From NCBI GenBank assembly GCA_944388745.1, contig CALXJZ010000001.1:5976-69975 (forward strand): DNA of 64,000 nucleotides, written 5' to 3'. The position numbers were made by a program, and so were the translations under genes. The stretch comes from an uncultured Clostridia bacterium (lineage in GTDB: Bacteria > Bacillota > Clostridia > TANB77 > CAG-508). A model generated the notes under the pieces. It was not told the origin of the DNA, made no database searches, and worked only from the letters and a program-made list of their open reading frames with translations. How positions within the stretch are numbered: the stretch's first letter is position 1; each line of letters starts with the position of its first letter. This document shows positions 2,940 through 52,410 of this stretch, one piece after another.

Positions 2940-4175
2940 CTATTTTTCCATAAATTCAATTGCTTTCATTATTCCCAATTTCCCATATTCATAAGTTAGT
3001 CCACCTTGCATATATGCAATATATGGCTTTCTTAACGGTCCATCACAACTAAGTTCTATTGTTGAACCTTGTGTAAATGTACCTGCTGCCATAATAACTT
3101 TATCTTCATATCCACCCATATCTCCTGGATATGGTATTATATCTGAATCAATTGGTGAACCACTTTGAATTCCTTGACAAAACTTAATTAGTTTATTTTC
3201 TTCTCCTAAATGAACTGTTTGTACTATATCTGCTCTTTTTTCATCATATTTTGGTTCTACATTATATCCTAATTTTTCTAATATGCAACTCGCAAAAACT
3301 GCTGTTTTTAAGCTACTTGCAACCACAGTTGGTGCAAAAAATAGCCCTTTTATAAATAAAGAATTTTGATTTAATGATGGTCCTATCTCTTTTCCTATTC
3401 CTGGTGCTGTTAATCTTTCTGCACATAATTTAATTAATCCTTTTTTTCCAGAAATGTATGCTCCAGATGTTGCAATTCCTGCTCCTAAATTTTTCATTAG
3501 AGATCCTACTATGATGTCTGCTCCTACTTCAATTGGTTCTTTTTCTTCTACAAATTCTCCATAACAGTTATCTACCATTATTATTACTTCTGTATTTACT
3601 TTTCTAATTTCTTTTATTATTTTTTCTATTTTATCAATATTTATACTTTTTCTCGTTGAATATCCTCTTGACCTTTGGATTTCCACAAGTTTCACATCAT
3701 TTGTGGATAATCTTTCTCTTATTTTTTCATAATCAAAATCATTTTCTACTAAATCTATTTGTTCATATTTGATACCATATGCTTTTAAAGAACTTTCGCT
3801 TTTTTCTTTTCCTATCCCAATTACTGTTTGTAATGTATCATATGGTTCTCCTGTTATACTAAGCATTGTGTCATTTGGTCTCAATAACGCTGATAGCGTA
3901 ATTGCTAATGCATGTGTTCCTGAAATCAGTTGTGCTCGAACTATGCTATCTTCTGCTTTGAATATATGACTATATATTTCTTCTATTTTGTCTCTTCCTG
4001 GCTCATCTATTCCATATCCTGTATATGAATTTAGATGTTGCTCTTGTAAATGGCATTCTTGGAATGCGTCTAATACTTTTTTACTGTTTATTTCGCATAT
4101 CTTGTCTATTTCTTTTATTATTGGTGTTATTTCTATTTCTACTTTTTCTTTTACTTCTTGTAAGTTTTGTTTCAT
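2940..4175 (-). CDS. PLP-dependent Cys/Met-metabolism enzyme, YnbB / 'aluminium resistance protein' (Met gamma-lyase-like) family
   Basis: 411 aa; sequence pattern and length match the YnbB family (PF06838-like). RBS AGGAAG precedes the ATG. Confidence 0.7.
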   Translation of the reverse strand: MKQNLQEVKEKVEIEITPIIKEIDKICEINSKKVLDAFQECHLQEQHLNSYTGYGIDEPGRDKIEEIYSHIFKAEDSIVRAQLISGTHALAITLSALLRPNDTMLSITGEPYDTLQTVIGIGKEKSESSLKAYGIKYEQIDLVENDFDYEKIRERLSTNDVKLVEIQRSRGYSTRKSINIDKIEKIIKEIRKVNTEVIIMVDNCYGEFVEEKEPIEVGADIIVGSLMKNLGAGIATSGAYISGKKGLIKLCAERLTAPGIGKEIGPSLNQNSLFIKGLFFAPTVVASSLKTAVFASCILEKLGYNVEPKYDEKRADIVQTVHLGEENKLIKFCQGIQSGSPIDSDIIPYPGDMGGYEDKVIMAAGTFTQGSTIELSCDGPLRKPYIAYMQGGLTYEYGKLGIMKAIEFMEK

Positions 4176-4200
4176 TAAAATTTTCTTCCTTTCTTCGTTA

Positions 4201-4260
4201 TGGTCAGTTTGGGGACAGGTTCGGACTAACCATTTTGGGTTACTTTGGGGACGCCACTTT
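4201..4260 (+). repeat. Family-A dispersed palindromic repeat, copy 1 (TGGTCAGTTTGGGGACAGGTTCGGACTAACCATTTTGGGTTACTTTGGGGACGCCACTTT)
   Basis: Near-identical copies at 22556-22624 (inverted) and 44952-45018. Contains GGTCA..TGACC inverted arms and two T(T)GGGGAC(A/G) cores. Lies 25 nt upstream of the ynbB-like start. Confidence 0.8.
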
Positions 4261-4470
4261 ATTTTCTGTATTTTCGCTTATTATTTTACAATAATTCTCC
4301 TTTTTTTTCAAGGAATTAGGTACTTTAATTTATGCAATTTAAAAATTGAGGAAGTATTTGAATTTATACTTTCTCAATTTTTAATAGACTAATTGTTATT
4401 ACATAAATTACATTATACTATCTTTTAGGTCTGTCCCTTTTGTTTCATTTTGAAACGATTTGGCACGTCC

Positions 4471-7400
4471 CTAAATGACGAATTTCTTGATTAAGAATAC
4501 TCCTCCAGCTATTGTGATTAAAACTATTCCACCTAACATGAAATATGTTCTTGTTGCTCCTGTGCTTATTGATATCATTACTGGTGCATCATCTATGTCA
4601 TCTTCTCCTTCTTTTTGATTGTCTGGTGTTGAGTCTTTGTCTGGTAAATCATAATCATTATCATCTTCTGATATTTCTGCTATGTTTGTCATTACTCCCA
4701 TGTTGTTTTCATTGTTTATCCATGTTAAGACTACTTCTACTTCTGTGTATTCTCCTGGTTGTAATAGGATATCTTGTGGCAATCTTGTTGATATTACATT
4801 ATTTCCTTCATCTGTCCATCCAGGGTTATCTGCTGGGTCAAATCTTAATCCTTCTGGTATATAGTCTGTTATTTCTTTTACATATCCAGGTATGTCCCCT
4901 TCATTTGTTACTCTAATTGAGTATCTGAATTTGACTGTTACTTGGTTTAGTTTCTTTCTATGTAATTCTACTTTTACTATTTCTTCTGGGTCGTCATATG
5001 GCTGATGTCCTGTTACTGTTACTGTTTCTTTTCCGTTTTCTATTACTATTGCTTCTGTTACCCATTTTCTTAATGCTAAGTCAAATTCTTTTACTATTAC
5101 TTTTTCGAAGTCATCATCATCTTGTTGTCCTGGTATGTATTCTCCTGTTTCATCATCTTTATATCCTGGTAAGTTTTCATCATTTGGAAGTTCTACATTA
5201 TCACTTTCTGAGTCTCTATCTGTTATTTCTTCATGATTATCATCTTGGTATTCTGTAATGTCTGCAATATTTGTTATGTTTTCGTTTGTTGGTGCACTTT
5301 CTATTACTCTACACATTACAGGTACTTCTTGATATGATAATTCATATGCACCTTCTTCGTTTATTACAGGTTTGTTAATTAAACTATTTTCTAAATATCT
5401 TGTTGTTAATGTTCTTCCATCTTCAGATACTTCCCATCCATATTGGTCATTGAATTCTCCGTCAACATATTCTAAGTATGGTGGTAAATGGTCTTTGATT
5501 TCAGCTGCATAACCATCTATATCGCCTTCATTATATACTCTTAACATGTATATCACTATGTCATTTTTTTGTACTAATACTGGTTCTTTTGTATGGTTAT
5601 ATATTGCTGTTGTGATTAAGTTTCCTTCTTCATCTTCTGTATTTAATAATGATGTGTCTACTACCGGTTCTCTTGTATATGAACCATCTTCATTTCTTAG
5701 ATATTCATCTTCTTCTATTGTTTGGTCATTACTTACTGCTATTATGAATTTTCTTAGTGCTAAGTCAAATTCTTTTACTATTACTTTTTCGAAGTCATCA
5801 TCATCTTCTTGTCCTGGTATGTATTCTCCTGTTTCATCATCTTTATATGTTGGTCTATCTTCTCCTTCTGGCTCTTCAAATCCTCCATCTGGAGTTGAAT
5901 CTCTGTCATCTGTTTCGTCTCCATTTTTGTCTGCATCTTCTGTTATTTGTGCTAAATTTGTTATTTTCCAATCTGACCTTGCATTGTCTTTTACCTTACA
6001 TGCTATTTGTACTTCTTTATAGTATAATGGTTCTTCTTCATTTACTCTTGTTTCGTCAAATGCTTCTATTAGGTTTTGTCTTTCTTCTGTTTCTTTTTCT
6101 TTTGATAAGTAATCTGTTGTTACTCTATTTCCTTCTATTGTCCATTCATATTGTTGATTTATTAGATGGTTTGGTAAAAATTCTAATTCGTCTGGTAAAT
6201 AGTCTGTTATTTCTTCAGCATATCCTGAAAGTTCAGACTCGTTATATACTCTTATTGTATAGATTACTGTATCTCCTTTTCTTACTTCTACTGGCTCTTT
6301 TGTGTGATTATATGTTGCTGTTGTTATTAAGTTTCCATTTTCATCTTCTGTATTTAATATTGATGCATCTACTACTGGTGCTCTAGAATATGAACCATCT
6401 TCATTTCTTAGATATTCATCTTCTTCTATGTTTTCATCTCTACTTACTGCTACAATGAATTTTCTTAGCGCTAAGTCAAATTCTTTCTTAACATTATCTA
6501 CTGTTATTGTTATTTTACCTGTTGTTTTGTCTATTGTTACTGGAACATTTTCTGTTATTGTTGCTCCTGTGTTGTCTTTTACTACCATTATTGTGTTTTC
6601 TGTATCTATTACATATACTCCGTTTTGTATTGTCTTTGCTACACTTAGTTCGATACTTCCTGTAAATTTATTGTATCCATCTGGTGCGCTTGTTTCTGTT
6701 ATTGTATATGTATCTAGCGTTGTTGTATCTGTTATTTGGAATGTTCCTAAGTTTAATATTCCATTTGAATCTGTCGCTTCTCTATCTTCTCCATTTACAT
6801 TGAATACTGCTCCTGATAGTGGTGTTTCTGTTTCACTATCTACCTTTACTATTTCTAGTTCATAATCTCCTACTATTTTTTCATTGTCTATTTCTATTGT
6901 TATTCTTCCTGTTGTTATATTTATTGTTACTGGAATATTTTGAGTTATTGTTGCTCCTGTGCTATCTTTTACTACCATTGTTGTGTTTTCTGTGTCTATT
7001 ACATATACTCCGTTTTGTATTGTTTTTGCCACACTTAGTTCGATACTTCCTTCAAATTTGTTATATCCTTCTGGTGCACTTGTTTCTGTTATTGTATATG
7101 TATCTAGCGTTGTCGTATCTGTTATTTCAACTGTTCCTAAGCTTAGTATTCCATTTGCATTTGTTGCTTCTCTATCTTCTCCATTTACATTAAATACTGC
7201 TCCTGGTAATACTGTTTCTGTTCCTTGTTCTTTCTTTACAATTTCTACTACATAGTTTCCTTCTATCTTTTCATTGTCTACTGTTATTGTTATTTTACCT
7301 GTTGTTTTGTCTATTGTTACTGGTATGTTTTGTGTTATTTCTGTTCCTTCACTATCTTTTACTACCATTGTTGTGTTTTCAGCATCTATTACATAGTTTT

Positions 7401-10400
7401 CATTATCTAACTTTTTATCTACACTTAATTCTATACTTCCATCAAATTTGTTGTATCCATTTGGTCCTGTTGTTTCTTTTATTACATATGTATCTGGTAT
7501 TTCTGTGTTTGCTATTCCAAATGTTCCTAAGTTTACTATTCCGCTTGCATTTGTTGCTTCTTTGTCTTCTCCATTTACATTGAATATTGCTCCAGTTAGT
7601 TTTGCTCCTGTTTCTCCGTCTTGTTTTACTAACTCTATTTCATAGCTTCCTTCTATCTTTTTGTTTGGTACTGTTACTGTTATCTTTCCATTTTCTAAGT
7701 TGGCATTTACTTTTCCTTCTGCTAATCCTGTTCCTTCTACATTTTTTAATTCTATGTTATTTACTACATATTCTCCATCTTGTATTCCTTTTGTTACTTC
7801 TAGCTCTACACTATTAAATATTTTGTTGTATCCTTCTGGTGCTTCTATCTCTTCTATTTTTATTGTCTCTGTTCCTTCTTCTGTTATTTCTATTCCTTCT
7901 ATTTCTATTTTTCCCTCTGCATTTGTTCTTTCTGTCTTTTCTGTTCCATCTGCTAGTCTTACCTTAAACTCTGCACCTTCTAATACCTTTTCTTCATTTT
8001 CTTGGTCTACCTTTAATATTTCTAAGTTGTATCCTCCTGCTATCTTTTCATTTTCTACTGTTATTGTTACCTTACCTGTTGTTACATCTAATGTTACTGA
8101 AACATTTTCTGTTATTGTTGCTCCTGTGCTGTCTTTTACTACCATTGTTGTATTTTCTGTGTCTACTACATAGTTTCCATTTTCTAACTTTTTAGCTACA
8201 CTTAGTTCTATGCTTCCTTCAAATTTGTTGTATCCATTTGGTCCTGTTATTTCTTTTATTACATACGTATCTGGTGTTTCTATGTTTGTTATTGTAAATG
8301 TTCCTAAGTTTACTATTCCACTTGCATTTGTTGCTGTCTTATCTTCTCCATTTACATTGAATACTGCTCCTGATAGTTTTTCTTCTGTTTTTCCATCTTG
8401 TTTTACTAGCTCTATTTCATAGTTTCCAGTTGCTTTATCTAATATTAGTTTTTCAAAATCGTCATCATCTTGTTGTCCTTTATAGTAATAATTTGAATCT
8501 GCTAAATTTGATTGGTTGTTATTTCCTGTGTAATTTTCCATATTAGTTTGATTTACACTTGGTTCTGTCTCTGGTTCTGAATCTCTATCTAGCCCTTCTT
8601 GGTTTGTTATTGTAACATTACTCTCTGCATCGTATTCTTCCGCAATCCATGCAACATTTGTTAATACTTTTTCTCTTTCTCCTGGCTGTTCTACTACTTC
8701 GCAAGTTATTTCTATTGTTTCTTTGTCTAATTCTCCTCCTGTATATTTAGCTAAATTATCTGTATTGCCTGCTTTTCTAATTAAGTTTACTGTATTTGTT
8801 TCCTCATCATAGCTTTCTAATTCAAAATTTCCACTTACTACTTGTGAGAATTTTAATCCCTCTGGTAATTGATCTACTATTTTTGTTGCTCTTCCTTCTT
8901 TTTCTCCTTCATTATATATTGTAATTTCATATGTTACTATATTTCCTGTTTCTACTTTTACTGGATCTTTTCTATGTTTATATGTCGCTGTTGTTCCATT
9001 TTCTAATGTTGTTGTATCTATATTTGGTATTCTTGTATTACTTCCTGTTAATGTTTCTCCATTTACTTTTGTAATATATTTTCTAAGTGATAAGTCAAAT
9101 TCCTTTTTTACATTATCTACTGTTATCGTTATTTTCTGAGTTGTTTTATCTATTGTTACTGGTATATTTTGTGTAATTTCTGTTCCTGTGCTATCTTTTA
9201 CTACCATTGTTGTGTTTTCTGTATCTACTACATAGTTTCCATTTTCTAATTTTTTGGCTACATTTAGTTCTATACTTCCGTCAAATTTGTTGTATCCATT
9301 TGGTCCTGTTGTTTCTTTTATTACATATGTATCTGGTCTTGTTATATCTGTTATTTCTACTGTTCCTAAACTTAAAATTCCACTTGAATTTGTCGCTGTT
9401 TTATCTTGATTGTTTACATTAAATACTGCTCCCGATAGTTTTTCTCCTGAAACTCCATCTTGTTTTACTATCTCTATTTCATAGCTTCCTTCTATCTTTT
9501 TGTTTGGTACTGTTACTGTTATCTTTCCATTTTCTAAGTTGGCATTTACTTTTCCTTCTGCTAATCCTGTTCCTTCTACATTTTTTAATTCTATGTTATT
9601 TACTACATATTCTCCATCTTGTATTCCTTTTGTTACTTCTAGCTCTACACTATTAAATATTTTGTTGTATCCTTCTGGTGCTTCTATCTCTTCTATTTTT
9701 ATTGTCTCTGTTCCTTCTTCTGTTATTTCTATTCCTTCTATTTCTATTTTCCCCTCTGCATTTGTTCTTTCTGTCTTTTCTGTTCCATCTGCTAGTGTTA
9801 CCTTAAACCTTGCATCTTCTAATACCTTTTCTTCATTTTCTTGGTCTACCTTTAATATCTCTAATCCATATTCTCCTGCTATCTTTTCATTGTCTACTGT
9901 TATTGTTATTTTACCAGTCGTTTTGTCTATTGTTACTGGTATATTTTCAGTAATTTCTGTTCCTTCGCTGTCTTTTACTACCATTGTTGTATTTGCAATA
10001 TCTACTACATATCTTCCATTTTCAATTTTTTTTGCTACATTTAATTCAATGCTTCCTGTAAATCCATTGTATCCACTTGGTGCTGTTACCTCTTTTATTA
10101 CATAGCTATCTCGTGTTGAAGCATTTGTTATTTGTATTGTTCCTAAACTTACTATTCCGCTTGAATTTGTTGCTGTTTTATTTTGTCCATTTACACTAAA
10201 TATTGCTCCAGTTAGTTTTGCTTCTGAAATTTCATCTTGTTTTACTAGTTCTAATTCGTATTCTCCTTGTAAATTAGGTATTTCAATCTCTAATTTTTCT
10301 GGTATTGAAATTTCTTCTTTTTCTGGTATTACTACTGGTTGCTCATCACCATTTGTGTTTGACGCCCATAAAGTAAAGTTCGTTTTATCATAATCTATAT

Positions 10401-11478
10401 TTATCTCTAAACTTATCGTTTTTTGTATAGTTTGTTCTAAAGGTAGAGAAATATAGAAATCCTCTCCTATTAAATCTTCAATTGTTGTTCCTGCTGACAC
10501 TTGGTTTTTATTTTCATTTAGTAAAATGTAGTCATTTGTCTGTGCATTGTTTATTTTTGTAATAAATTCTAAATCAAATGCTTTTATATTATTTTTTGTA
10601 ATATGTATTGGTCCAATTATTGTTCTTGATCCTTGTATTTCATAATCTAATTCCTGTGTATCTATTTGTATTGGTGCTTTTTGTGCATTTGTAATATTGT
10701 CATATTCTGGTGCTTTTTCTTTCGCAATTCTTATTAGGTATTTATATAAAACTTCCGCTTGTACTTGTCTTTGTTGCCCTTCTGGTCTATTTAAATCTGA
10801 CAAAGTTGTATATGTTATTTTATTTTCTGTATAATAAAGCCATCCTGAATTACCTGTTTTATCATATATATTTCCGTTTTCCCCATAATTCGTAAAATAC
10901 CATAATGCTGCTTGTTGTACTGCTTCAATGTCGTCATTTGTTAATGAATATTGATAAGCACTACTATATATTCCTGCTGCATTTAATAAGTTCTCTTTAT
11001 ATTCTTCATTTGAAACTCCATCATAATAAAACATATCTAATATTGCTAATATTGCACTATATTGACTTATGGTTGTCCCATCATCTAGCTCTATTGTGCC
11101 TTCCACTAAGCCTCTTAATATTTCATTTTCTTTTGCAATATCTTCTTTTTCTTGTTTCATATCATAAAATACATCATACGTTGCTCTTTTATCTACATTT
11201 TGAAATCCTACTCCTGCTTTTAAGCAATATATATTATTTTCAGAGTATATATTTGATGTTGCATTTTGATATTCAATTAAATTCCAAATTTTATCTCCTC
11301 CTGAACTCGGATTTCCTATTGCATATCCTATCCCATCACTTTTAAGTTCAGTTATTCCAATGTATTTTGGATTGCTTGATGAATCTGTTGCCAATGATAT
11401 CGCATTTAAGCTAATTATTAGCATTAAAATTAAACTCACAAATACTACGATCACTGTTTTCAAACTTTTCATCTTCAT
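4471..11478 (-). CDS. giant cell-surface adhesin: signal peptide, N-terminal thioester (TQXA-like) domain, tandem SpaA-like prealbumin-fold isopeptide domains and DUF11/CARDB-like repeats, C-terminal TM anchor
   Basis: 2335 aa. Signal peptide MKMKSLKTVIVVFVSLILMLIISLNA. Cys (NIYCLKAGVGF) plus VQQAALWYF resembles the thioester Cys...TQxA(I/L)W motif. At least 8 repeats of G(P/S)NGYNKF.GSIEL.VAKK (SpaA-like). Four repeats of DLALRKF/W...YNHTKEPV...GD.V.Y.IRVYNEG...GYA.EI.D.LP (DUF11-like). Ends ...GGIVLITIAGGVFLIKKFVI without LPXTG. Confidence 0.85.
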   Translation of the reverse strand: MKMKSLKTVIVVFVSLILMLIISLNAISLATDSSSNPKYIGITELKSDGIGYAIGNPSSGGDKIWNLIEYQNATSNIYSENNIYCLKAGVGFQNVDKRATYDVFYDMKQEKEDIAKENEILRGLVEGTIELDDGTTISQYSAILAILDMFYYDGVSNEEYKENLLNAAGIYSSAYQYSLTNDDIEAVQQAALWYFTNYGENGNIYDKTGNSGWLYYTENKITYTTLSDLNRPEGQQRQVQAEVLYKYLIRIAKEKAPEYDNITNAQKAPIQIDTQELDYEIQGSRTIIGPIHITKNNIKAFDLEFITKINNAQTNDYILLNENKNQVSAGTTIEDLIGEDFYISLPLEQTIQKTISLEINIDYDKTNFTLWASNTNGDEQPVVIPEKEEISIPEKLEIEIPNLQGEYELELVKQDEISEAKLTGAIFSVNGQNKTATNSSGIVSLGTIQITNASTRDSYVIKEVTAPSGYNGFTGSIELNVAKKIENGRYVVDIANTTMVVKDSEGTEITENIPVTIDKTTGKITITVDNEKIAGEYGLEILKVDQENEEKVLEDARFKVTLADGTEKTERTNAEGKIEIEGIEITEEGTETIKIEEIEAPEGYNKIFNSVELEVTKGIQDGEYVVNNIELKNVEGTGLAEGKVNANLENGKITVTVPNKKIEGSYEIEIVKQDGVSGEKLSGAVFNVNNQDKTATNSSGILSLGTVEITDITRPDTYVIKETTGPNGYNKFDGSIELNVAKKLENGNYVVDTENTTMVVKDSTGTEITQNIPVTIDKTTQKITITVDNVKKEFDLSLRKYITKVNGETLTGSNTRIPNIDTTTLENGTTATYKHRKDPVKVETGNIVTYEITIYNEGEKEGRATKIVDQLPEGLKFSQVVSGNFELESYDEETNTVNLIRKAGNTDNLAKYTGGELDKETIEITCEVVEQPGEREKVLTNVAWIAEEYDAESNVTITNQEGLDRDSEPETEPSVNQTNMENYTGNNNQSNLADSNYYYKGQQDDDDFEKLILDKATGNYEIELVKQDGKTEEKLSGAVFNVNGEDKTATNASGIVNLGTFTITNIETPDTYVIKEITGPNGYNKFEGSIELSVAKKLENGNYVVDTENTTMVVKDSTGATITENVSVTLDVTTGKVTITVENEKIAGGYNLEILKVDQENEEKVLEGAEFKVRLADGTEKTERTNAEGKIEIEGIEITEEGTETIKIEEIEAPEGYNKIFNSVELEVTKGIQDGEYVVNNIELKNVEGTGLAEGKVNANLENGKITVTVPNKKIEGSYEIELVKQDGETGAKLTGAIFNVNGEDKEATNASGIVNLGTFGIANTEIPDTYVIKETTGPNGYNKFDGSIELSVDKKLDNENYVIDAENTTMVVKDSEGTEITQNIPVTIDKTTGKITITVDNEKIEGNYVVEIVKKEQGTETVLPGAVFNVNGEDREATNANGILSLGTVEITDTTTLDTYTITETSAPEGYNKFEGSIELSVAKTIQNGVYVIDTENTTMVVKDSTGATITQNIPVTINITTGRITIEIDNEKIVGDYELEIVKVDSETETPLSGAVFNVNGEDREATDSNGILNLGTFQITDTTTLDTYTITETSAPDGYNKFTGSIELSVAKTIQNGVYVIDTENTIMVVKDNTGATITENVPVTIDKTTGKITITVDNVKKEFDLALRKFIVAVSRDENIEEDEYLRNEDGSYSRAPVVDASILNTEDENGNLITTATYNHTKEPVEVRKGDTVIYTIRVYNESELSGYAEEITDYLPDELEFLPNHLINQQYEWTIEGNRVTTDYLSKEKETEERQNLIEAFDETRVNEEEPLYYKEVQIACKVKDNARSDWKITNLAQITEDADKNGDETDDRDSTPDGGFEEPEGEDRPTYKDDETGEYIPGQEDDDDFEKVIVKEFDLALRKFIIAVSNDQTIEEDEYLRNEDGSYTREPVVDTSLLNTEDEEGNLITTAIYNHTKEPVLVQKNDIVIYMLRVYNEGDIDGYAAEIKDHLPPYLEYVDGEFNDQYGWEVSEDGRTLTTRYLENSLINKPVINEEGAYELSYQEVPVMCRVIESAPTNENITNIADITEYQDDNHEEITDRDSESDNVELPNDENLPGYKDDETGEYIPGQQDDDDFEKVIVKEFDLALRKWVTEAIVIENGKETVTVTGHQPYDDPEEIVKVELHRKKLNQVTVKFRYSIRVTNEGDIPGYVKEITDYIPEGLRFDPADNPGWTDEGNNVISTRLPQDILLQPGEYTEVEVVLTWINNENNMGVMTNIAEISEDDNDYDLPDKDSTPDNQKEGEDDIDDAPVMISISTGATRTYFMLGGIVLITIAGGVFLIKKFVI

Positions 11479-13796: not shown

Positions 13797-13943
13797 TAAA
13801 ATTCTCTCCTTTTGTATGTTGATTAAATCTCAAACGAAGTTCGCCACTGTGCGACGTCAAAATTGTAATTATTTTTCAACTACTTCTACTTATAGTATTC
13901 TAGACTAATTTCATACAATTTGCAAGTATTTGAAATAATTTTA

Positions 13944-16404: not shown

Positions 16405-16434
16405 AGGGATTTAGAGCTCCGTCCCCTAATCCCT
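16405..16434 (-). repeat. GGGGACG-core hairpin (AGGGATTAG GGGACGGAGCT CTAAATCCCT) overlapping the gdpP stop codon
   Basis: 9-bp inverted arms with a loop carrying the same TAGGGGACG core as the family A/B repeats. No strong U-tract follows. Confidence 0.55.
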
Positions 16435-18453
16435 CTCTGAGAAATATTCATTTATTCTGTTTATTAATTCTTGTTTTGTTTCTTCTATTGTCATTCCTTC
16501 TACTTGTGCTCCGGCAAGTGTTATATGTCCACCTCCGCCTAGTTTTTCTAAGATAATTTGTACATTGATGTCTCCTATTGAACGTCCACTTATACATACT
16601 TTGTCTCCTAAGTTTCCTATTACAAATGATGCTGTGATGTCACTTATTGTTAATAGTTCATCTGCTGCTTTTGCACAAATTAGACTTACATCTTTGGTTT
16701 TTTTGTCATATATAGATATTGCTATTGTGTCATTTACTATTTCTGCTTTTTTGACTACATCTGCTATTTTATTGAAGCTTTTTAAGTCACTTTGAAACCA
16801 TTTTTTCACTCTTATTATATCTACTCCACACCTACGTAAATATGCTGCCGCTTCAAATGTTCTAACACCTGTTTTAAATGTAAAGTTTTTAGTATCCATC
16901 ATTATTCCTGCATATAGGCTTTCTGCTTCTCTTTCTCTTAGATTTACTTTTACATCTGCATATTGCAATATCTCTGTTACTAATTCTGCTGCTGAAGATG
17001 CATAAACTTCTTGGAATGTTAGTGTCGCTTTTTCTACATAGTCTGTGCTTCTTCTATGATGGTCGATTACTACTATTTTTTCTGTTTTGTCTAATAATTC
17101 CGGTGCTTCCACATAATTTACTTTGTTTGTGTCTACTATAACTAACAATGTTTCTTCATTTATATTTTCAATTGCCACTTCTTTATTTATCATTATGTCT
17201 TCATATTCGCTATCTTTTTCAATGGATTTTAAGAAATTTTCTATTTGTGTGACATTTTTGTCATATACTATATAAGCATCTTTATCCAATGCTTTTGCTA
17301 ATCTATATATTCCCATACATGATCCTATTGCATCCATATCTGGATTTGTGTGTCCCATTATCATGACTTTTTGAGAATTTAGTATTAAGTTTTCTAATGC
17401 GTGTGCTACAACTCTTGCTTTTACTTTTGTTCTTTTTTCTACTTCTTGTGCTCTTCCTCCAAAGAATTTGTATATTTCATTTTCTCTTATTACTGCTTGG
17501 TCTCCTCCACGTCCTAATACTATGTCCATTGCAGTTTGTGCTGATTTATATTTTTCTTTATCTGTTGAGCCTTCATTTGATACTGCAATACTAAGTGTGA
17601 ATTGTGTTTTATCATTTATATTTATTTCTTTTATTTTATCTAATATACTAAATTTATCTTCTTTTACCTTTTCTAAATATCTTTGCTCAAAGAAATATAC
17701 ATATCTATCTTTTTCTATTTTTAACAATACTCCATTTGTCTCATTTGCCCATTCATATATGCATTTATCTATCTCTGCTGTTGCTTGTGGCTTTTCTTCG
17801 CTTTCTAGTCTTTGTATTGTTTCCTCATAATTGTCTATCATTATTATTGCTATACATGATTTTGAGTCTTTATATTCCTTTTGTAACTTGATATTTTCTG
17901 AGTCATCTATGAAATATAAAATTATCATATACTCTTTTTTAGATTTTTTTTCTTTGTTCTTGTTTTTATTATATTTTACATATTTTGCAATTACTTTATA
18001 GTCTTTTTCGCCTATCATTACTTGCTTAGTAATTTCTTTTTTACTATCTTTCTCATTGTCTTTTTTTATTGCATCTTTTACGTCTAGGCTAATATCATCT
18101 ATATATGTGTTTATATCTATATTTGCAAATTCAGTTGTAAATTTTGAACTTTTCCATATCACATTTCCGTCATTTTCCATGATTATTAATGGAAATGGTG
18201 AATTTATTAAACTTGTTTTTGCTGCTGTATCTACTGTTAATGTTAAGTCCTGTAAAGTTTCTGATATTTCGCTTTTTCTTTTCTGGTTTGTATAGTATGT
18301 ATATGCTAATAACAATAGGTATCCAATTATTGCATATATTGTCACTTCTGGTGCTTGCCAACATATAACTATTAGTAAAATAAGTATTAATGCTAAATAT
18401 ATTTTTGTTCTAGATGTTATTGTATCTAAAACTTTTCTATTTGTATTTTGCAT
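16426..18453 (-). CDS. gdpP: cyclic-di-AMP phosphodiesterase GdpP (TM, PAS, degenerate GGDEF, DHH-DHHA1)
   Basis: Two N-terminal TM helices. DHH motif region MIMGHTNPDMDAIGS...VIDHHRRS. DHHA1 GGGH (KLGGGGHITLAGAQ). About 675 aa, as expected for GdpP/YybT. Confidence 0.85.
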   Translation of the reverse strand: MQNTNRKVLDTITSRTKIYLALILILLIVICWQAPEVTIYAIIGYLLLLAYTYYTNQKRKSEISETLQDLTLTVDTAAKTSLINSPFPLIIMENDGNVIWKSSKFTTEFANIDINTYIDDISLDVKDAIKKDNEKDSKKEITKQVMIGEKDYKVIAKYVKYNKNKNKEKKSKKEYMIILYFIDDSENIKLQKEYKDSKSCIAIIMIDNYEETIQRLESEEKPQATAEIDKCIYEWANETNGVLLKIEKDRYVYFFEQRYLEKVKEDKFSILDKIKEININDKTQFTLSIAVSNEGSTDKEKYKSAQTAMDIVLGRGGDQAVIRENEIYKFFGGRAQEVEKRTKVKARVVAHALENLILNSQKVMIMGHTNPDMDAIGSCMGIYRLAKALDKDAYIVYDKNVTQIENFLKSIEKDSEYEDIMINKEVAIENINEETLLVIVDTNKVNYVEAPELLDKTEKIVVIDHHRRSTDYVEKATLTFQEVYASSAAELVTEILQYADVKVNLREREAESLYAGIMMDTKNFTFKTGVRTFEAAAYLRRCGVDIIRVKKWFQSDLKSFNKIADVVKKAEIVNDTIAISIYDKKTKDVSLICAKAADELLTISDITASFVIGNLGDKVCISGRSIGDINVQIILEKLGGGGHITLAGAQVEGMTIEETKQELINRINEYFSERD

Positions 18454-22450: not shown

Positions 22451-22555
22451 ACACCTTTAAGAAAATCATTTTATCTTTTTTGAGTCATCACCACTTAATT
22501 ATGTATCTGAAATCACTATATCATAAACTCAACTGTTTTTCAACATTGGTTATTA

Positions 22556-22624
22556 GTGCCGTCCCAAAACTAACCAAAAATGGTCACTCCGAACCTGTCC
22601 CCAAAGTGACCACAATGACCAAAA
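22556..22624 (-). repeat. Family-A dispersed palindromic repeat, copy 2 (inverted relative to copies 1 and 3)
   Basis: The reverse complement reads TTTTGGTCATTGTGGTCACTTTGGGGACAGGTTCGGAGTGACCATTTTTGGTTAGTTTTGGGACGGCAC. Lies between the SNF2 helicase stop and the 139-aa gene start. Confidence 0.8.
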
Positions 22625-25600
22625 TTAATTAAATAAATTCATTATTTCTTCTTTTGATAATTTGTTTATAAATGATGTTTTTGTGCTTAGCATATTGTCT
22701 ACTAACTCTGATTTTTTTTGTTGTAACTCATATATCTTTTCTTCTATTGAATTTTTTGTTATTAGTTTATATACTTGCACATTATTTTTTTGTCCAATTC
22801 TATAGGCTCTGTCTGTTGCTTGATTTTCTGTTGATATATTCCACCATGGATCATAATGTATTACCATATCAGCACCTGTTAGGTTTAATCCTGTTCCTCC
22901 TGCTTTTAACGATATCAAGAATATTTTTATATCTGAATTACTGTTAAATTCATCTACCATTCTAATTCTTTCATCTACTTTTGTGCTTCCTGTTAGTTTA
23001 TAATACTCAATATTTTTCTTTTTTAATTTTTCTTCTATTATTGGGAACATTGATGTATATCCTGAAAATAGTAATATTTTGTGTCCCCCTTCTATTGCAT
23101 CTTGTACTATTTCCATACATTGATTAAGTTTTCCGCTTCCTTCTTTATAGTCTTTGATAAACAGACTTGGATGGCAACATATTTGTCTTAATCTTGTTAA
23201 TACTGCTAATATTTGCATATGACTTTTTTCATATCCATTTAGTTCTATTTCTTGGAATAAGTCTTGTTTTGCTTGTGCCAAATATGTTAGATATATATTT
23301 CTTTGCTCTTCTTCCATTTCATTATTTAATACTGTTATTGTTTTATCTGGCAATTCTGTTAGTACTTCTTTTTTATTTCTTCTTAGTACAAATGGTTCTA
23401 TTAGCATTTTTAATTTTGCCATTGCTTTCTCATCATTGTCTTTTACTATCGGTACTTCATACATTGTTTTAAATTGCTTATATGTAAATAAATATCCTGG
23501 CATGATGAAGTCAAATATTGACCATAATTCTGCTAATGAGTTTTCTATTGGCGTTCCTGTTAACGCATATCTTGTGTCTGCTTTTATTTGTTTTATTGCT
23601 TTTGCATTTTGTGTATTACTATTTTTTAAATATTGTGCTTCATCTGCTATTATATATCTAAATTGATATTTCTTATCTTTATATAAATCAATATCTCTTT
23701 TTAATAGGTCATATGATGTAATTACTAAATCATAGTTTTCTATTTCTTTTATTTGTCTTTTTCTTTCTGATAAAGTTCCCCTAATTACTAATATTTTTAA
23801 ATCTTTTGCAAATTTGTTTGCTTCATTTTGCCAATTTAATGTCAGTGAACTTGGTGAAACTACTAAACTTGCTCTTTTAGTTTCTTTTTGAAAATTGCTC
23901 TTTTCTTTTTGTTCTATTAATTCATTTTTGTTCTCTTCAGAATTTTCTACTCCGTCTTTACTTCTGGCTTTTTCTACATAATCAACAATTACAGATAACA
24001 TTTGAATAGTTTTTCCAAGTCCCATATCATCTGCAAGTATTCCGCCAAATTCATATGAATCTAAAATCTTTAACCATTTGAATCCTGTTTTTTGATAATA
24101 TCTTAAAACATTATTTAAATTTTCTGGTATTTGGATCTCATCTTCTAAATGGTCTTTATCTAAATTATTTACTATTTCCCTATATTCACCATTTTTTGTT
24201 ACTTGAATTCCTTTTTTACTTTTTAATAGCTGGTTTAGATATAAACTTCTATAAGCTGGTAAAACCACTTCTCCTTTTTCTAGTTCTTTATAATCAATAT
24301 CCATTCCAGTAACAAGCTTGTCTAAAAAGTCAATCTCTTTATTATCTTCTAAGTTTAAAAAACTACCATCTTTTAGTCTATGATATTTCTTTTTTAATTG
24401 ATATTTTTCCATTATCTTTTGTAATTCTTTTATATCTATGTCTAAATCATTTAAATCTATTGATAATAAGTTATTTTCTACTTTTACTCCAATATTGCCA
24501 ATTTTTGCTTGTCTTATTTGTTTCGTCTTAAATTTTTCAGTAACTAAAACTTCAAATCTTTTCATATATACATTTATATCTTCTGTCAAAAATTCATAAA
24601 TTTTGTCATTATCAGGTAATATAAATCTTAGATTCTTTGTATCTAGCATAAATCCTGTTTTTCTAAATATGTTTAATGCTTTCGTCTCTTGAATCATGTT
24701 TCTTGGAAATTTTAGTTCTTGTTTTTCATCTAATGGATTAAATTCATTATTTTCATAACAAAATAGTACATCTGCAACTAGATAATCTTTCTCGTCAAAA
24801 TCTAAATATACCTTTACTACTAATTCTTTTGGTTTGTATTTTTCAATTTCTTCTTCTGATATATTTTCAATTGTTATTGCTGCTCTTACTTTTGGCATTA
24901 TTATTGAAAATAGCTGTGTTAATTCTTCTTTTCCCAAAACTATTTCTGTCATATAATTTTGCCTAAAAAATTCTAATAGCTTTAAATTGGCATTTTCAAA
25001 TTCTTTGCTACATCTATATATTTTTTTACTATCTAAAATGTATTTGTATTCTTTCCCTTTTAAAATACTAACATTAAATATTTCTACATTTGGCAAAATT
25101 ACATATTGATTATCTGATTTCTTTTTTAATGTAAAAGATATTTTTGGGTCTTCATTTGCAAATTCGATTTTTTCATTTAAATAGTCTCTTTGAAATTCTA
25201 CTTGTTTTCCTTGTAATATTTCAAATAAATCATCTATTCCACTATTTCCTAGCAAAATGCTTGTTTCACTTAATGCTTTTCCATAATAACGATAATTACT
25301 GTTTGAATTTGAATTTGCATATTTTATAATTTCTGCATATTTTAATAAAAAATCAAGTAATTTTTGACTTTCTTCATCAAACATTTCTTTAGTATGTACG
25401 AATTGTAGTTTTTCTCCATATTTATAAAATTCTTTTTCCATCATTCTTGTATAAAATTCTGATAGATTTTTTATCTTATACATTCTTTTGTTTCCAATTT
25501 TAAATTCTACTTTCATGTCTCCCAAAAATTTGTCATAGATTACTTTAGGCTCTAAATGAATTGTTCCTTTATTTTTTAATTCTTCATCATCACTATCAAT

Positions 25601-26032
25601 TCCATCTATTTCTTCGTTATAAAACGTGTTTACCATTTGTCTGAAGTTTCTGTATTGCATATTATTACTTGTATTTAGTTTTTCTTTTCTTTCATTTATT
25701 ATATTTTCTGGCTTTTCGTATTTTCTTCTATAATTTTCGTCTTCTGCAAATGTCATAACAGATGCTAATGTATGTTTGCAAACTCCATAGTGATTATAAT
25801 AGTCTTGACAATTACAAGTAATGTCGTCTATTTCTCCATTACTTACTGATATATATGTTTTATATGGTTCAGAGCCTACTACCATTCCTCTTATAGCAAA
25901 GTTATTACTGTCTTGATATTCTACTTCTATTATTTCAACTCTTCCTAATGATTTATACATTCTTGCTTTTTGTGTTCTTTTTTCTCCAGCATCTTGACAC
26001 AAACTGTCTAATATTTGTTGGCTTACTATCAT
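22625..26032 (-). CDS. SNF2-family DEAD/H helicase with N-terminal SWIM zinc finger
   Basis: SWIM CxC..CxH (ITCNCQDYYNHYGVCKHTLASV). Motif I LADDMGLGKTIQ, motif II DEAQYLKN, C-terminal HELICc (QATDRAYRIGQ). Confidence 0.85.
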   Translation of the reverse strand: MIVSQQILDSLCQDAGEKRTQKARMYKSLGRVEIIEVEYQDSNNFAIRGMVVGSEPYKTYISVSNGEIDDITCNCQDYYNHYGVCKHTLASVMTFAEDENYRRKYEKPENIINERKEKLNTSNNMQYRNFRQMVNTFYNEEIDGIDSDDEELKNKGTIHLEPKVIYDKFLGDMKVEFKIGNKRMYKIKNLSEFYTRMMEKEFYKYGEKLQFVHTKEMFDEESQKLLDFLLKYAEIIKYANSNSNSNYRYYGKALSETSILLGNSGIDDLFEILQGKQVEFQRDYLNEKIEFANEDPKISFTLKKKSDNQYVILPNVEIFNVSILKGKEYKYILDSKKIYRCSKEFENANLKLLEFFRQNYMTEIVLGKEELTQLFSIIMPKVRAAITIENISEEEIEKYKPKELVVKVYLDFDEKDYLVADVLFCYENNEFNPLDEKQELKFPRNMIQETKALNIFRKTGFMLDTKNLRFILPDNDKIYEFLTEDINVYMKRFEVLVTEKFKTKQIRQAKIGNIGVKVENNLLSIDLNDLDIDIKELQKIMEKYQLKKKYHRLKDGSFLNLEDNKEIDFLDKLVTGMDIDYKELEKGEVVLPAYRSLYLNQLLKSKKGIQVTKNGEYREIVNNLDKDHLEDEIQIPENLNNVLRYYQKTGFKWLKILDSYEFGGILADDMGLGKTIQMLSVIVDYVEKARSKDGVENSEENKNELIEQKEKSNFQKETKRASLVVSPSSLTLNWQNEANKFAKDLKILVIRGTLSERKRQIKEIENYDLVITSYDLLKRDIDLYKDKKYQFRYIIADEAQYLKNSNTQNAKAIKQIKADTRYALTGTPIENSLAELWSIFDFIMPGYLFTYKQFKTMYEVPIVKDNDEKAMAKLKMLIEPFVLRRNKKEVLTELPDKTITVLNNEMEEEQRNIYLTYLAQAKQDLFQEIELNGYEKSHMQILAVLTRLRQICCHPSLFIKDYKEGSGKLNQCMEIVQDAIEGGHKILLFSGYTSMFPIIEEKLKKKNIEYYKLTGSTKVDERIRMVDEFNSNSDIKIFLISLKAGGTGLNLTGADMVIHYDPWWNISTENQATDRAYRIGQKNNVQVYKLITKNSIEEKIYELQQKKSELVDNMLSTKTSFINKLSKEEIMNLFN

Positions 26033-31282: not shown

Positions 31283-34200
31283 TTACATATCTTCTACTAT
31301 AATTCTTTTTAGCATCAACATGTCTGTTACATCTACATTTCCATCTTCATTCATATCTGCTAATAATAAAGCTCGTCCTGTTAGTATCCATTCTGTTCTA
31401 CTTCCTGCAACTAAATGTCTCTTTAACATTAGTAAATCTGTTACATCTATCCTTCCATCTTGGTTTACATCTCCAATTTCTATTTTTTCTATGTTTATTA
31501 TTTCTACAATTGCCTGTATCTCATTTCCTGCTAAATCTTTTATTGTTATTGTTTCATTTGTGTTTTCACTATATTTTTTTGTTAGTATTTTTTTATTTTC
31601 TGATAGTATCCATCCTTCTACTTCTTGTATTTCTTCATTTGATGTTATTGTTACTATTACAGGATCTTCTGTTATTTCTTTTGTACTATACTCTATATTT
31701 ATTATTGGTGCTGTATTGTCAAAGTTAAATGCTTCACTTTTTGTTATTGTTTCATTTTCTAAATTATCTTCTGCATATATCCACAAATACCATTTTCCAT
31801 CTCCTGTACTTTTTGTGATTGTTTGTCCATTTTCAAAACTTTCTGTAAAACTTTCTTTTGTAGGCTCTGTCTCACTTTGTGTCCATTGGTATTTTAAACT
31901 TATATCTTTTACACCAACCTCTTCTTGGTTATCTGCTACACCTACTTTTACACTATATCCCTTTTGTGGATTTTCACTTCCATTAGGTTCAAATGTTATC
32001 TCTGGTCCTTCATTATCAATTATATATCTTTGTCCATTTTCTTCTGCGTATTTATGCCCTTCTGTATCTGACTTTGTATATATAATTAAATTATCGCAAT
32101 GTTCAAAAGCCTCACTTTCTATAGTTCCTACGTTTTCTGGAATAACTATGCTTTTTAAATCACTACAATCATAAAACGCTTGACTTCCTATCTTTGTTAC
32201 ACTAAGGGGAAGTATTATGTTTTTTAAACTGATACATCTTGAAAAAGCCATCGTCTCTATAGTAGTTACTCCTTCTGGTATTATTATACTTTCCAAATTA
32301 CTACATTCATCAAAAGTTGCATATTCTAATGTAGTTACACTATCTGGTATAATTACTTTTACCAAATTAGTACATTGATAAAATGCTCTTTCTTTTATAG
32401 AAATAACTCCTTCTGGAATACTATATTCACTTATATCTTCCTTTCCTTCTGGAAATTTTATTAACTCTGTTTTTTCTTTATTAAATAAGATTCCATTTTC
32501 ACTTATGTAATTATTATTATATGAATTCACATTAATACTTTGTAGATTGCTACATCCATAAAATACATCATCACCTATGCTTGTTACTCCTCGTGGAATT
32601 TCTATATTTGTTAAATTACTACATCTTGCAAATGCATTATTTCCTATAACAGTCACTGTATCTGGAATTACTATATTATTCAAATTTATACAATAATTAA
32701 AAGTATATGATTCTATGGTCTTTATATTATTAGATAAAACTACATTTTCTAAATTAATACAGTTAGAAAATGCTTCACTATCAATAACAGTTACACTATT
32801 TGGAATATTTATACTTTTTAAACTAGTACAGTAGGCAAATGCTCTAAAACCTATACTTGTTATACTTTCTGGAATATTTATATTTTTCAAATTAGTACAA
32901 TTATAAAACATACAATTACCTATAGTTGTTATTTTATTGTCTACAACTACATTTTCTATAAAAGTAGTATATTGATTATTGTGCCAGTCACTTTGTTCAT
33001 TATATTCCCAGTTTTTTATTTCTCCTTCTCCTGTTATTGTCAATGTTTTATCTTCTAAAGTCCATTTAGCAATTACACTTTCATCTTGATTTACTGATAT
33101 GTCCCAAGATTTTTCTTCTTCAATTTGATATTCTGTAGAAGTTTCATACGCTATTCCATTTAAAATATATGGTACTTTATGTTCTTCTGCATATTTATGC
33201 CCTATACTATCTGCTTCAACATATAATATTAATTGATTACATCCAGAAAATGCACTTTCCCCTATACTCGTTACACTAGTAGGAATATTTATATTTACTA
33301 AACTAGCACAGTTTGAGAAAGCTTGATTCTCTATACTTATTACTCCTTCTGAAATATTTACACTTCTTAAATTACTACAATTATAAAAAGTAGAATATTT
33401 TATATCTGTTACATTTTCTGGTATATTTATACTTTCTAAACTACTACAACCATAAAAGGCTAGCTCACCTATACTTGATACATTTTGAGGTATTTCTATA
33501 TTTTTTAGAATAGTACATCTTCGAAATGCATTTTCGCCTATACTTTCCATACTGTCTGGTAATCTTATACTTTCCAAAGTGTTACAATTTGCAAATGCAT
33601 AACTTTGTATTCTTTTTATACCTCCTGCAAAGTATATGTTTTGCAAATTATTACAATTATAAAAAGTATAATCTCTTATAGTTGTCACCTTGTCTGGAAT
33701 AGTTATGTTTTCTAAATTAGTACATCCATAAAATGAATAAGATTCTATGTTTTCAACACTGTTAGGTATAATAATACTTTCTAGGCTTGTATTACCATAA
33801 AAAGCATAATAATAAATAGTTGTTACAGTATCTGGTATTTCATATTCTCTTAAATCTTTCTTTCCTCCCGGAAAACAAATAAGTTCATCTTTTTCTTTAT
33901 TAAATAATACTCCATTTTCATCAATAAATTGATTATTATTTTCATTGACATTTATTTTCTCTAGATTAGTACAACCGGCAAAAGCTCCGTAACCTATACT
34001 TATCACATTAATCGGAATATCTATACTTGTTAAATTACTACATCCTGAAAATGCATAGTATGATATACTTGTTAAACTTTCTGGAATTTCTATACTCGTT
34101 AAATTATTACATCCTGAAAATGCATTCTCTCCTACTCTTGTTACTCCTTCCGGAATTTTTATTTTATCTAAACTACTACATTTTGAAAACGCACTATTTT

Positions 34201-34636: not shown

Positions 34637-34867
34637 GTGTAGTTCCCCTTTCTTTGTTACACTTTCTTTCTCTTAAATCTATTTTACTTTACTTATAATA
34701 TATAAATTTTTTTATACTTTGTAAATATAGCTTTTGCTTGGTAGCGTGAATGTATATTAATTCTACTTACGGCTACTATTCTTTTACTTTTTCTTTTTAA
34801 TTATTAAGTTTTTATTACATTTTTGTTTAATTATTATTTTTTTTTAATCTCTTAACATTATTATCAG

Positions 34868-34894
34868 CAAAAAAATAGACGTACCTCGTACGTC
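34868..34894 (-). terminator. rho-independent terminator after the second dockerin gene
   Basis: Minus-strand GACGTACGAGGTACGTC hairpin followed by TATTTTTTTGC. Confidence 0.65.
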
Positions 34895-34949
34895 CGTAGT
34901 CTGTTTTCTTTTGAAAACATATCATTTATTTTCAATTTTCATATTATTA

Positions 34950-44948: not shown

Positions 44949-44951
44949 TTT

Positions 44952-45018: not shown

Positions 45019-45122
45019 TTCTATCTCCAATTTTCCATTTTCTCCTTTTCTTTTTTCTCCTCTTTTCCTACTTTCTTCCATTGTATCTTCTTAGATTTCT
45101 CATGTATCTCTTATAACTTGTC

Positions 45123-52396: not shown

Positions 52397-52410
52397 AATT
52401 TTTCACCTCC

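Follow-up and report, generated by a model that had tools for sequence, protein, structure and literature searches.

What is the palindrome that recurs in three intergenic spacers of the 64,000-nucleotide (nt) stretch analysed here (contig CALXJZ010000001.1 of assembly GCA_944388745.1, an uncultured Clostridia bacterium; hereafter the window), and what could have spread it? A sequence-only reading of the stretch had described it as a dispersed repeat, family A, directly 5′ of gene starts in both orientations, and had regarded it as a mobile or regulatory DNA palindrome, such as a miniature inverted-repeat transposable element (MITE), a repetitive extragenic palindrome (REP)-like element, or a shared operator. 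The analysis reported here indicates, with a probability of about 0.8, that family A is a non-autonomous intergenic repeat resembling REPs and bacterial interspersed mosaic elements (BIMEs), whose cognate is a single-copy, vertically inherited HUH transposase of the Y1 class and REP-associated tyrosine transposase (RAYT) type, most like the TIRYTs of subclass 2.1. The earlier view of a REP-like dispersed DNA palindrome, and not simply an RNA motif of 5′ untranslated regions, was borne out by copy number, polymorphism, the Y1 gene, and the occurrence of both orientations.

The three-copy palindromic repeat was confirmed by an exact 18-mer core, TTTGGGGACAGGTTCGGA, at 4208-4225 (+), 22588-22605 (-), and 44967-44984 (+), whereas 100 shuffles of the window gave no match to it even at up to three mismatches (3 observed versus 0 expected). 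An inverted-repeat finder paired 22555-22625 with 44947-45017 (85%) and with 4190-4258 (84%), spanning 69-71 nt. As the guanine-plus-cytosine (GC) content of the window is only about 27-28%, the G+C-rich family A blocks are conspicuous. The copies are:

4201-4260 (+): family A copy 1, TGGTCAG-TTTGGGGACAGGTTCGGA-CTAACC-ATTTT-GGGTTAC-TTTGGGGACGCCAC-TTT
22553-22620 (-): family A copy 2, with an additional partial GGTCATTG arm at 22613-22620
44960-45020 (+): family A copy 3, TGGTCAC-core-CTGACC-ATTTT-TGGTCAT-AAAAGGGACGCCAC-TTTT

The sequences read as previously outlined, with the 18-mer enclosed by a GGTCA(s)/(s)TGACC stem, after which come TGACCATTTTTGGTCA, intact in copy 3 and degenerate in the other two, and then TTTrGGGACGsCAC. 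All genes around the three copies are encoded on the minus strand, which puts copies 1 and 3 into 5′ leaders as antisense sequence and gives copy 2 the sense orientation. The spacer of 295 nt that contains copy 1 separates a gene for a SpaA-repeat protein of 2335 amino acids (aa) from a Met_gamma_lyase (YnbB-type) gene (2940-4175, minus strand); the copy is 25 nt upstream of the ATG of the latter (4175), with a promoter-like TTGAAA-17-TAAAAT (4311-4283, minus strand) upstream of the copy. Copy 2 was located 4-12 nt past the stop codon of a SNF2 helicase gene (22625-26032) and 105 nt from the start of a 139-aa open reading frame (ORF); a terminator scan flagged it (14-pair stem, 6-nt loop, T-run), and it is followed by a promoter-like TTGAAA-17-TATAGT (22543-22515) and then by the 139-aa ORF. 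Copy 3 is situated about 11 nt upstream of the start codon of a UDG-family gene (44948; 4 nt when the element boundary of the sequence-only reading is used); on its other side, 103 nt separate it from the stop codon that closes the ORF before it (45123). The gene distances given earlier agree with these values, and the placement directly 5′ of a gene start holds for copies 1 and 3; copy 2 is better called 3′ of the helicase gene. Several neighbours in the window are DNA-repair genes (UDG, OGG, AddB, SNF2), and a tRNA/tmRNA scan of the window returned none. Orthologues were found for copy 1 (L092, L101, L083, L067; L numbers denote the compared loci), copy 2 (L008, L068), and copy 3 (L040).

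The family consensus of 57-60 nt, tGGTCAs-TTTGGGGACAGGTTCGGA-sTGACC-ATTTT-TGGwyAs-TTTrGGGACGsCAC-TTT, corresponds to about 1.6 units of a 36-nt period. Each unit of about 36 nt is composed of a GGTCAS arm, a TTTGGGGAC core, and an STGACC arm, and occurs duplicated or inverted, the element as a whole holding two direct TTTGGGGAC and three GGTCA/TGACC boxes. The invariant motif TTTGGGGACAGG sits in the loop of a hairpin with a stem of 6-7 bp, or of 13 bp when G·U pairs are counted. On the + (sense) strand, the fold comprises a 13-bp stem including U·G pairs (UUUGGG versus UUCGGA), a GACAGG loop, and then AUUUUU (-20.1 kcal/mol; z = -2.9 versus shuffled sequence); the reverse complement forms an 8-bp stem with a 16-nt loop and without the U-tract (-11.7 kcal/mol). 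A GGTTAG variant of the left arm, present in 24 copies, keeps a G·T pair on the + strand only, and the reciprocal variant was seen in 1-2 copies. This suggests that one strand is the folding one, as expected of a Y1 enzyme substrate and/or a sense RNA. The closing stem pair is mismatched in 24 of 99 copies, with little compensatory change.

No terminal inverted repeats were found, the ends TGGTCAG... and ...GCCACTTT not being inverted, and a comparison of 31 sites revealed no conserved tetranucleotide in the left flank, no target sequence, and no duplication next to the element. The right flank is T-rich, with T at position +1 in 31 of 31 sites, and this T is probably part of the element. Rfam gave no match at gathering thresholds for the whole window and nothing relevant at E ≤ 1 for two copies, and a full-text literature search with the core sequence returned no relevant paper. 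Several other candidates were discarded: mini-ORFs within the element (MVSLGTGSD*, MVSPNLSPN*) are a by-product of the TGGTCA/TGACCA palindrome and have no Shine-Dalgarno sequence, and CtsR boxes, sigma-54 and extracytoplasmic function (ECF) promoters, parS, attC, and CRISPR were likewise considered and rejected on spacing, sequence, or context.

The genome-wide copy count proposed in the sequence-only reading was performed as an exact-match scan with the 18-mer across one genome per species (185,579 species). It returned 101 stretches, nearly all from seven related uncultured Clostridia/Bacillota metagenome-assembled genomes (MAGs), which hold 8-22 exact-core copies each; an eighth MAG has one copy. 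About 10 of the 101 stretches are chance matches inside coding sequence of unrelated genomes, and 2 are GC-rich contigs of 'Atopobium sp. UBA6362'. With an nhmmer profile, the same loci yielded 11 further copies of full length whose cores differ at 1-3 positions. The copies collapse to 32 distinct sites, all extragenic and many of them common to 3-7 species. Outside the core, orthologous copies share 97.5% identity and paralogous copies about 87%, which places most insertions before the species splits. Scanning viral contigs with a 16-mer gave 7 matches, each a coincidental one within a coding region of an unrelated contig of higher GC content; family A is thus not phage-borne.

Empty sites, which had also been proposed as a check, were found between species: filled and empty orthologous sites were identified in L018/L081 versus L102 and in L063/L087 versus L070, the filled ones carrying an extra 75-178 nt that comprise the ~57-nt element and unrelated flanking sequence with ragged boundaries. 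The target-site duplications sought along with them were not seen at these two sites. Smaller rearrangements include an inserted core module of 35 nt, inverted and delimited by a 13-nt duplication (L023 versus L013, L067 versus L083), additional TTTGGTCAS 9-mers at the left end of some copies, a complete palindromic doublet (L061), and copies that have lost their right half (L034, L026).

The proposed search for a RAYT gene uncovered an IS200-like Y1 gene of the RAYT/TIRYT type between two inverted family A copies in four MAGs. In L043, the two copies are 1.1 kb apart and bracket a gene with YHCMLRG...MPNHIHL (the HUH motif) and RYIHQNPV, the catalytic tyrosine motif of the Y---NP form. The GCCAC-TTT ends of both copies face the Y1 gene, and the outward GGTCAG ends abut the stop codon of a GH15 gene and face the gap gene, respectively. 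Orthologues in L099, L047, and L084 are intact (268 aa, 94-99% identical, HIHLE at the HUH histidines); the L043 copy has one nonsense codon between the HUH and tyrosine motifs, i.e., the gene is intact in three of four MAGs. The tyrosine of YIHQNP, invariant in the protein alignment, is Tyr119 in both the L099 protein and P0001. The protein matches Pfam Y1_Tnp (E = 2.6e-13), and its best and only NCBIfam match is NF047646, 'REP-associated tyrosine transposase' (E = 7e-16, 58.4 bits). For the AlphaFold (AF2) model of a 93%-identical homologue (pLDDT 78.7), the best match in the PDB was 4ER8, E. coli TnpA-REP with a REP hairpin (E = 2.3e-6, TM 0.70 on the target), followed by IS608, ISDra2, and IS200 TnpA. 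The model ends in three terminal helices, and weak, sub-threshold matches to the helix-turn-helix (HTH) families HTH_23/HTH_28/HTH_11 cover residues 231-262 of homologue P0017. No other Y1 gene turned up in the clade DNA sampled, about 700 kb, and with about one family A copy per 100 kb, a chance juxtaposition of repeat and gene is implausible.

A database search gave 1622 homologues of the Y1 protein, about 265 aa in length, and the three whose long contigs were inspected (P0017, P0041, P0090; 56-62% identity) all lie in a GH15-Y1-GAPDH context, the GH15-Y1-gap synteny being kept from 93% to 56% protein identity, with no tnpB adjoining the Y1 gene at the loci examined. In all three, the gene lies between inverted arrays with a period of 35-37 nt and a core TTGGG(G)ACAGG(C/T)AC separated by different inter-core sequence, and such arrays, or hairpins with GGGACAGG in the loop, also occupy other spacers of those loci. 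The diverged core GGGACAGG flanks the orthologous Y1 gene in the distant relatives (L110, L112, L114), L110 and L112 carrying TGGGACAG with three G only. The kept synteny, together with flanking repeats that diverge along with the gene, argues for a stable, vertically inherited resident, i.e., a RAYT-type system and not an insertion sequence (IS); a syntenic Y1 gene without tnpB, single-copy in the DNA sampled, is the signature of a domesticated RAYT, not of an IS. In L043, L099, L047, and L084 as well as in L110, L112, and L114, the Y1 start codon is preceded, on the gene side of the upstream repeat, by a conserved palindrome, (A)AGAGTATAGC-loop-GCTATACTCTT; this palindrome may terminate transcription of GH15 or serve the transposase gene as a regulatory hairpin.

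Among known systems, the closest parallel is found in the TIRtrons. In Di Nocera et al. 2013 (PMC3733652), RAYT-like genes flanked by inverted repeats, and not by GTAG REPs, were named TIRYTs and their units TIRtrons; many of the terminal inverted repeats (TIRs) share GGGGWSAS, and some form moderately abundant dispersed families, dimers, or clusters. Quentin et al. 2018 (PMC6006769) equate TIRYTs with TnpA-Y1 subclass 2.1, comprising long proteins with a C-terminal HTH-like domain and Y---NP. Likewise, the Y1 gene described here lies between inverted 57-nt elements with GGGGACAG, which matches GGGGWSAS, encodes a 268-aa protein with YIHQNP, is low in copy number, vertically inherited, and not IS-like, and has a flanking repeat that is also dispersed and moderately abundant (8-22 copies per genome), in singles, dimers, and clusters. 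The published examples considered come mainly from Proteobacteria and Acidobacteria, whereas the host here is an uncultured Clostridia lineage of 27% GC; Bertels et al. 2017 list Clostridia among the many classes that contain the corresponding RAYT group 1, so the class as such is already on record. Also in contrast to the TIRtrons, the repeat is modular with a 36-nt period, presents its motif in a hairpin loop, and is accompanied by several sibling GGGGAC hairpin families.

With the REP/BIME-RAYT systems (REPtrons) of Enterobacteria and Pseudomonas, family A shares the short extragenic palindromes, tens per genome and often past stop codons, the clusters of alternating orientation, and REPIN-like doublets (L061; 54380-54481 in the window), along with a vertically inherited Y1 gene, single-copy in the sampled DNA, that lies between inverted copies and has TnpA-REP as its best fold match. 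The IS200/IS605 family and the palindrome-associated transposable elements (PATEs) have in common with it the HUH/Y1 core, the lack of terminal inverted repeats and target duplication, and an expected recognition of a hairpin on one strand, to which the G·T-tolerant stem on the + strand only would fit. Both ends of an IS200/IS605 element are in the same orientation on the top strand. Here, the flanking elements are inverted, the Y1 gene is neither multicopy nor mobile and has no tnpB, and a left target tetranucleotide is missing.

The placement of family A at ORF boundaries is strictly polar, which also sets it apart from the TIRtrons; no description of such placement was found in the TIRYT/RAYT papers compared. 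The GGTCAG end lies 0-28 nt from an ORF boundary at all 32 sites but one (the copy facing gap, 112 nt). Sense copies follow a stop codon at 0-14 nt, with the next co-directional start codon at least 100 nt away, and at none of the 9 co-directional sites does a sense copy abut the next start codon. The exception at L079, 20 nt from an ORF of at least 60 aa, is probably spurious (318-385 nt with a 90-aa ORF threshold). Antisense start-adjacent sites (~16) all lie 9-28 nt upstream of the start codon, and four antisense sites are also only 2-13 nt past the previous stop codon, in an operon spacer. The complete separation of sense and antisense copies has p ~5e-7 (exact test by hand, 1/C(25,9)). 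Overall, both orientations relative to transcription occur in about equal numbers, and approximately 15 of the 32 sites are directly past stop codons or between convergent genes. The sense copy, with its 13-bp hairpin and U-tract, resembles a terminator and is predicted from its sequence to act as one; we take the polarity to mean that terminators ahead of a gene are selected against.

Several observations weigh against the proposed assignment or set the system apart from REPtrons. The family A hairpin has no GTAG or GTGG (GT(A/G)G) foot, the hallmark of canonical REPs and REPtrons, and TTTGGGGACAGG is its conserved motif instead; the protein has a putative extra C-terminal domain and, with 58.4 bits, scores below the NCBIfam equivalog cut-off of 80 for the RAYT family. 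The 8-22 exact cores per genome contrast with the 57-140 occurrences of the flanking 16-mers of RAYT groups 2 and 3 (group 1: about 12 per replicon; Bertels et al. 2017), and Quentin et al. 2018 report no REP-like sequences or structures near subclass 2.1 genes. The 64-kb window itself contains no Y1 gene, and that its own organism has one is to be expected from the sister MAGs. To judge from the sequence identities, most copies predate the species splits, and transposition may no longer occur. Given ragged ends and missing target duplications, the differences at the two filled/empty sites could be deletions instead of insertions. Conservation of the 18-mer in the MAG set is in part an ascertainment effect of the exact-match scan, and because the MAG copies were ascertained in this way, core conservation is not claimed as selection. 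Finally, terminator selection predicts that antisense copies beside a stop codon alone are tolerated, and there is none among the 32 sites; since this absence is left unexplained, a polar insertion mechanism is possible.

Four other explanations were considered. In a shared operator, the GGTCA/GGGGAC boxes would be the binding sites of a transcription factor controlling the downstream genes together, an idea for which the repeated short boxes, their position 9-28 nt from many start codons, and the several DNA-repair neighbours in the window could be quoted. Such a regulon is most improbable, given the ~15 of 32 sites past stop codons or between convergent genes, the leader copies that lie between a promoter-like site and the Shine-Dalgarno sequence and not over the promoter, and the transposase gene bracketed by copies. 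The genes downstream of start-adjacent copies are moreover functionally unrelated (TypA-type GTPase, Fe-hydrogenase, ScpA, YabP, PyrK-like, ArsR, MutS, Tgt, PFL-activase-like, P-type ATPase), so the regulon idea was rejected; the operator alternative of the sequence-only reading was not supported. Scarcely any more credible is a cis-acting structured RNA (riboswitch, leader, or small RNA (sRNA)) working in a single orientation: the sense fold is more stable than shuffled sequence (z ~ -3) and many copies are located in 5′ leaders, but these leaders hold the weakly folding antisense version, both orientations are roughly equally frequent, Rfam gave no match, and the stem shows little compensatory change (24 of 99 closing pairs mismatched).

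A classical MITE or a PATE, i.e., a deletion derivative with defined ends of an active multicopy IS (DDE type, or IS200/IS605 with TnpB), would explain the presence/absence polymorphism and draw on an enzyme of the IS200 superfamily, in genomes that also contain genuine MITE-like TIR families. The 57-nt unit without terminal inverted repeats or target-site duplication, a Y1 gene that occurs once in the DNA sampled, keeps its place between GH15 and gap at protein identities as low as about 56%, and has no neighbouring tnpB, and flanking copies that are inverted as in a REPtron, unlike the co-oriented ends of IS200/IS605, make this very unlikely, and the classical MITE of the earlier reading was not upheld. 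Host-maintained structural elements (terminators or messenger RNA stabilisers) spread by recombination or slippage, with the Y1 gene a mere neighbour, would account for the terminator-like sense orientation, the strictly polar placement, the age and vertical inheritance of the copies, and module changes that resemble slippage or duplication (the 9-mer, the 36-nt periodicity). This explanation is nonetheless unlikely, since inverted copies bracket the Y1 gene in four MAGs and, with co-diverged cores, in three distant relatives, and the core matches the GGGGWSAS of TIRYT flanks in other phyla (PMC3733652). As what the copies do today, a purely host-driven structural role may nevertheless apply. 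The REP/BIME-like repeat with a RAYT-type cognate is accordingly preferred.

For this preferred reading, mobilisation by the Y1 protein would follow by analogy. Similar to E. coli TnpA-REP and IS608, the enzyme would recognise both the GGGGACAG motif and the hairpin formed by one of the DNA strands, and would cut and rejoin single-stranded DNA, probably at replication forks, thereby seeding or rearranging copies; the sibling hairpin families (B, C-like) with a GGGGAC loop would belong to the same Y1 system. After insertion, copies would be sorted by selection on RNA structure. A sense copy would act as a terminator or 3′ protective hairpin and survive only directly past stop codons at the ends of transcription units, and an antisense copy, with its weak hairpin and no U-tract, would be tolerated in leaders and intercistronic spacers beside the Shine-Dalgarno sequence. 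A wider proposal, which we put forward as speculative and rather doubtful, is that subclass-2.1 Y1 proteins (TIRYTs) maintain REPIN-like repeats around a GGGGACAGG guide motif, and that these have been adopted by the host for a strictly polar role at gene boundaries, one orientation acting as a terminator past stop codons and the other as a neutral or stabilising leader hairpin beside the Shine-Dalgarno sequence.

Family A is accompanied in the window by further hairpins with related boxes, TGGGGAC occurring 10 times versus 1.2 expected:

49054-49086 (-): family B hairpin, ATGTCTCA-ATGGGGACGTTTCTCA-ATGAGACAT, just 5′ of the Shine-Dalgarno sequence of a Cu-oxidase_4 gene
52411-52443 (+): family B hairpin, ATGTCTCA-TTGGGGACGTTTCTAAG-TGAGACAT, directly 5′ of the AddB Shine-Dalgarno sequence
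53437-53466 (-): family B hairpin, ATGTCGCA-ATGGGGACGTTTCTT-ATGCGACAT, then a T-run, directly past the stop codon of a YitT-family gene (53466)
54380-54412 (+) and 54450-54481 (-): family B inverted pair between radical-SAM and YitT genes
4428-4471 (-): related partial element with a GGGACG box, a GTTTCA/TGAAAC hairpin, and a GGGACAG box, directly past the stop codon of the SpaA-repeat gene (4471)
16405-16434 (-): related hairpin, AGGGATT-AGGGGACGGAGCTCTA-AATCCCT, with GGGGAC in the loop

The five family B hairpins follow the pattern ATGTC(G/T)C...TTGGGGACGTTTCT...G(C/A)GACAT, with compensatory stem differences between copies, and fill the spacers of an AddB-OGG-YitT-radical SAM gene string; the GGGGAC hairpins all lie in spacers between housekeeping genes (e.g., AddB, OGG, YitT, radical SAM, RNase III). 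The inverted pair at 54380-54481 forms a perfect 32-bp REPIN-like hairpin (-42 kcal/mol as single-stranded DNA, z = -14.8), and a GGACA/TGTCC mini-palindrome at 52441-52465 comes after the hairpin at 52411-52443. Family B is also polymorphic (L073 versus L056). The partial relative that the sequence-only reading had placed at 4440-4470 is real, with its GGGACA/GGGACG boxes on the minus strand at 4428-4471; a 62-nt stretch with the distal part of this element (the GGGACAG box and most of the hairpin) is missing in L083 and present in L101. The left arm of the hairpin at 16405-16434 overlaps the TAG stop codon (16426-16428) of ORF 16426-18453, and a perfect TTGACA-17-TATAAT follows. Akin to it, ATCCCT/AGGGAT hairpins flanked by GTCCCC boxes were observed in L033, L070, L076, and L089.

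The same genomes contain other repeats. L027, L018, L095, and L066 contain members of a different, MITE-like family, which measures about 130-150 nt, ends in terminal inverted repeats (GGTTGAAAAATAATTACAATTTT ... AAAATTTAATTCTTTTCCAACC), and is polymorphic between MAGs; a half copy of it lies in the window at 13815-13881 (-), just upstream of a gene that by eye has a topoisomerase I-like N-terminus. Orthologous sites also differ in whether they carry a third repeat, which measures about 170-260 nt, has long terminal inverted repeats (CTAGAATGTTATATTAAATATTTTTTGTACCTTGTTGTCGCAACC...), and was not found in the window. Its loci are:

L036, 4306-4528: CTAGAATGTTATATTAAATATTTTTTGTACCTTGTTGTCGCAACC repeat
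L051, 3329-3498: CTAGAATGTTATATTAAATATTTTTTGTACCTTGTTGTCGCAACC repeat
L053, 6972-7236: CTAGAATGTTATATTAAATATTTTTTGTACCTTGTTGTCGCAACC repeat
L064: CTAGAATGTTATATTAAATATTTTTTGTACCTTGTTGTCGCAACC repeat
L100: CTAGAATGTTATATTAAATATTTTTTGTACCTTGTTGTCGCAACC repeat

Two regions of the window encode very large surface proteins with repeats inside the genes: the 2335-aa SpaA-domain ORF (4471-11478, minus strand) has internal DNA repeats spaced 390/777/1062 nt, and a 1117-aa ORF in the region 31283-38153 (-) contains 69-nt periodic repeats at 32155-34316. The AddB-like gene (49019-52412, minus strand) is split into two overlapping ORFs, 51777-52412 (ADDB_N) and 49019-51811 (C-terminal part of ADDB_N plus PDDEXK), reflecting either a frameshift/pseudogene or an assembly error.

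An identical core of 16-18 nt, TTTGGGGACAGGTTCG, is dispersed in contigs of 58-69% GC, in intergenic clusters with the order core(+), hairpin, core(+), hairpin, core(-):

L010, 1051-1137, 2100-2186, and 4389-4475: GC-rich clusters
L069, 4498-4553: GC-rich cluster
L115-L141: GC-rich clusters

Two of these contigs (65% and 67% GC) were retrieved from the genome collection, both part of a MAG with the deposited name Atopobium sp. UBA6362; the other sources are the metagenomes ERZ808240/ERZ808246, contigs of a fermentation metagenome (UOOH01/UOOR01), and one contig of the Joint Genome Institute (JGI). A metagenome scan for the GC-rich variant retrieved 27 loci (246 kb), all of 58-69% GC and all with the core, and no Y1 gene was found in these 246 kb. 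The presence of TTTGGGGACAGGTTCG across phyla could mean that the system passed from one phylum to another, or that its recognition sequence is under extreme constraint, and a conserved motif of the GGGGWSAS type is offered as explanation for the same core in these actinobacterial-type contigs.

The analysis gives an identity to family A and the sibling GGGGAC hairpins, which fill many intergenic spacers of an uncultured Clostridia lineage and which annotators and those searching for regulons or motifs could mistake for operators, terminators, or sRNAs. It adds a Clostridia member to the known but little-studied RAYT/TIRYT repeat systems and, for the barely characterised TIRYT/subclass 2.1 branch of Y1 proteins, provides a clostridial example with a candidate substrate, the top-strand hairpin showing GGGGACAG, which makes the question of what these proteins act on directly testable. 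The strict boundary polarity of the copies, in turn, represents a natural data set on how selection on transcription termination filters repeat insertions.

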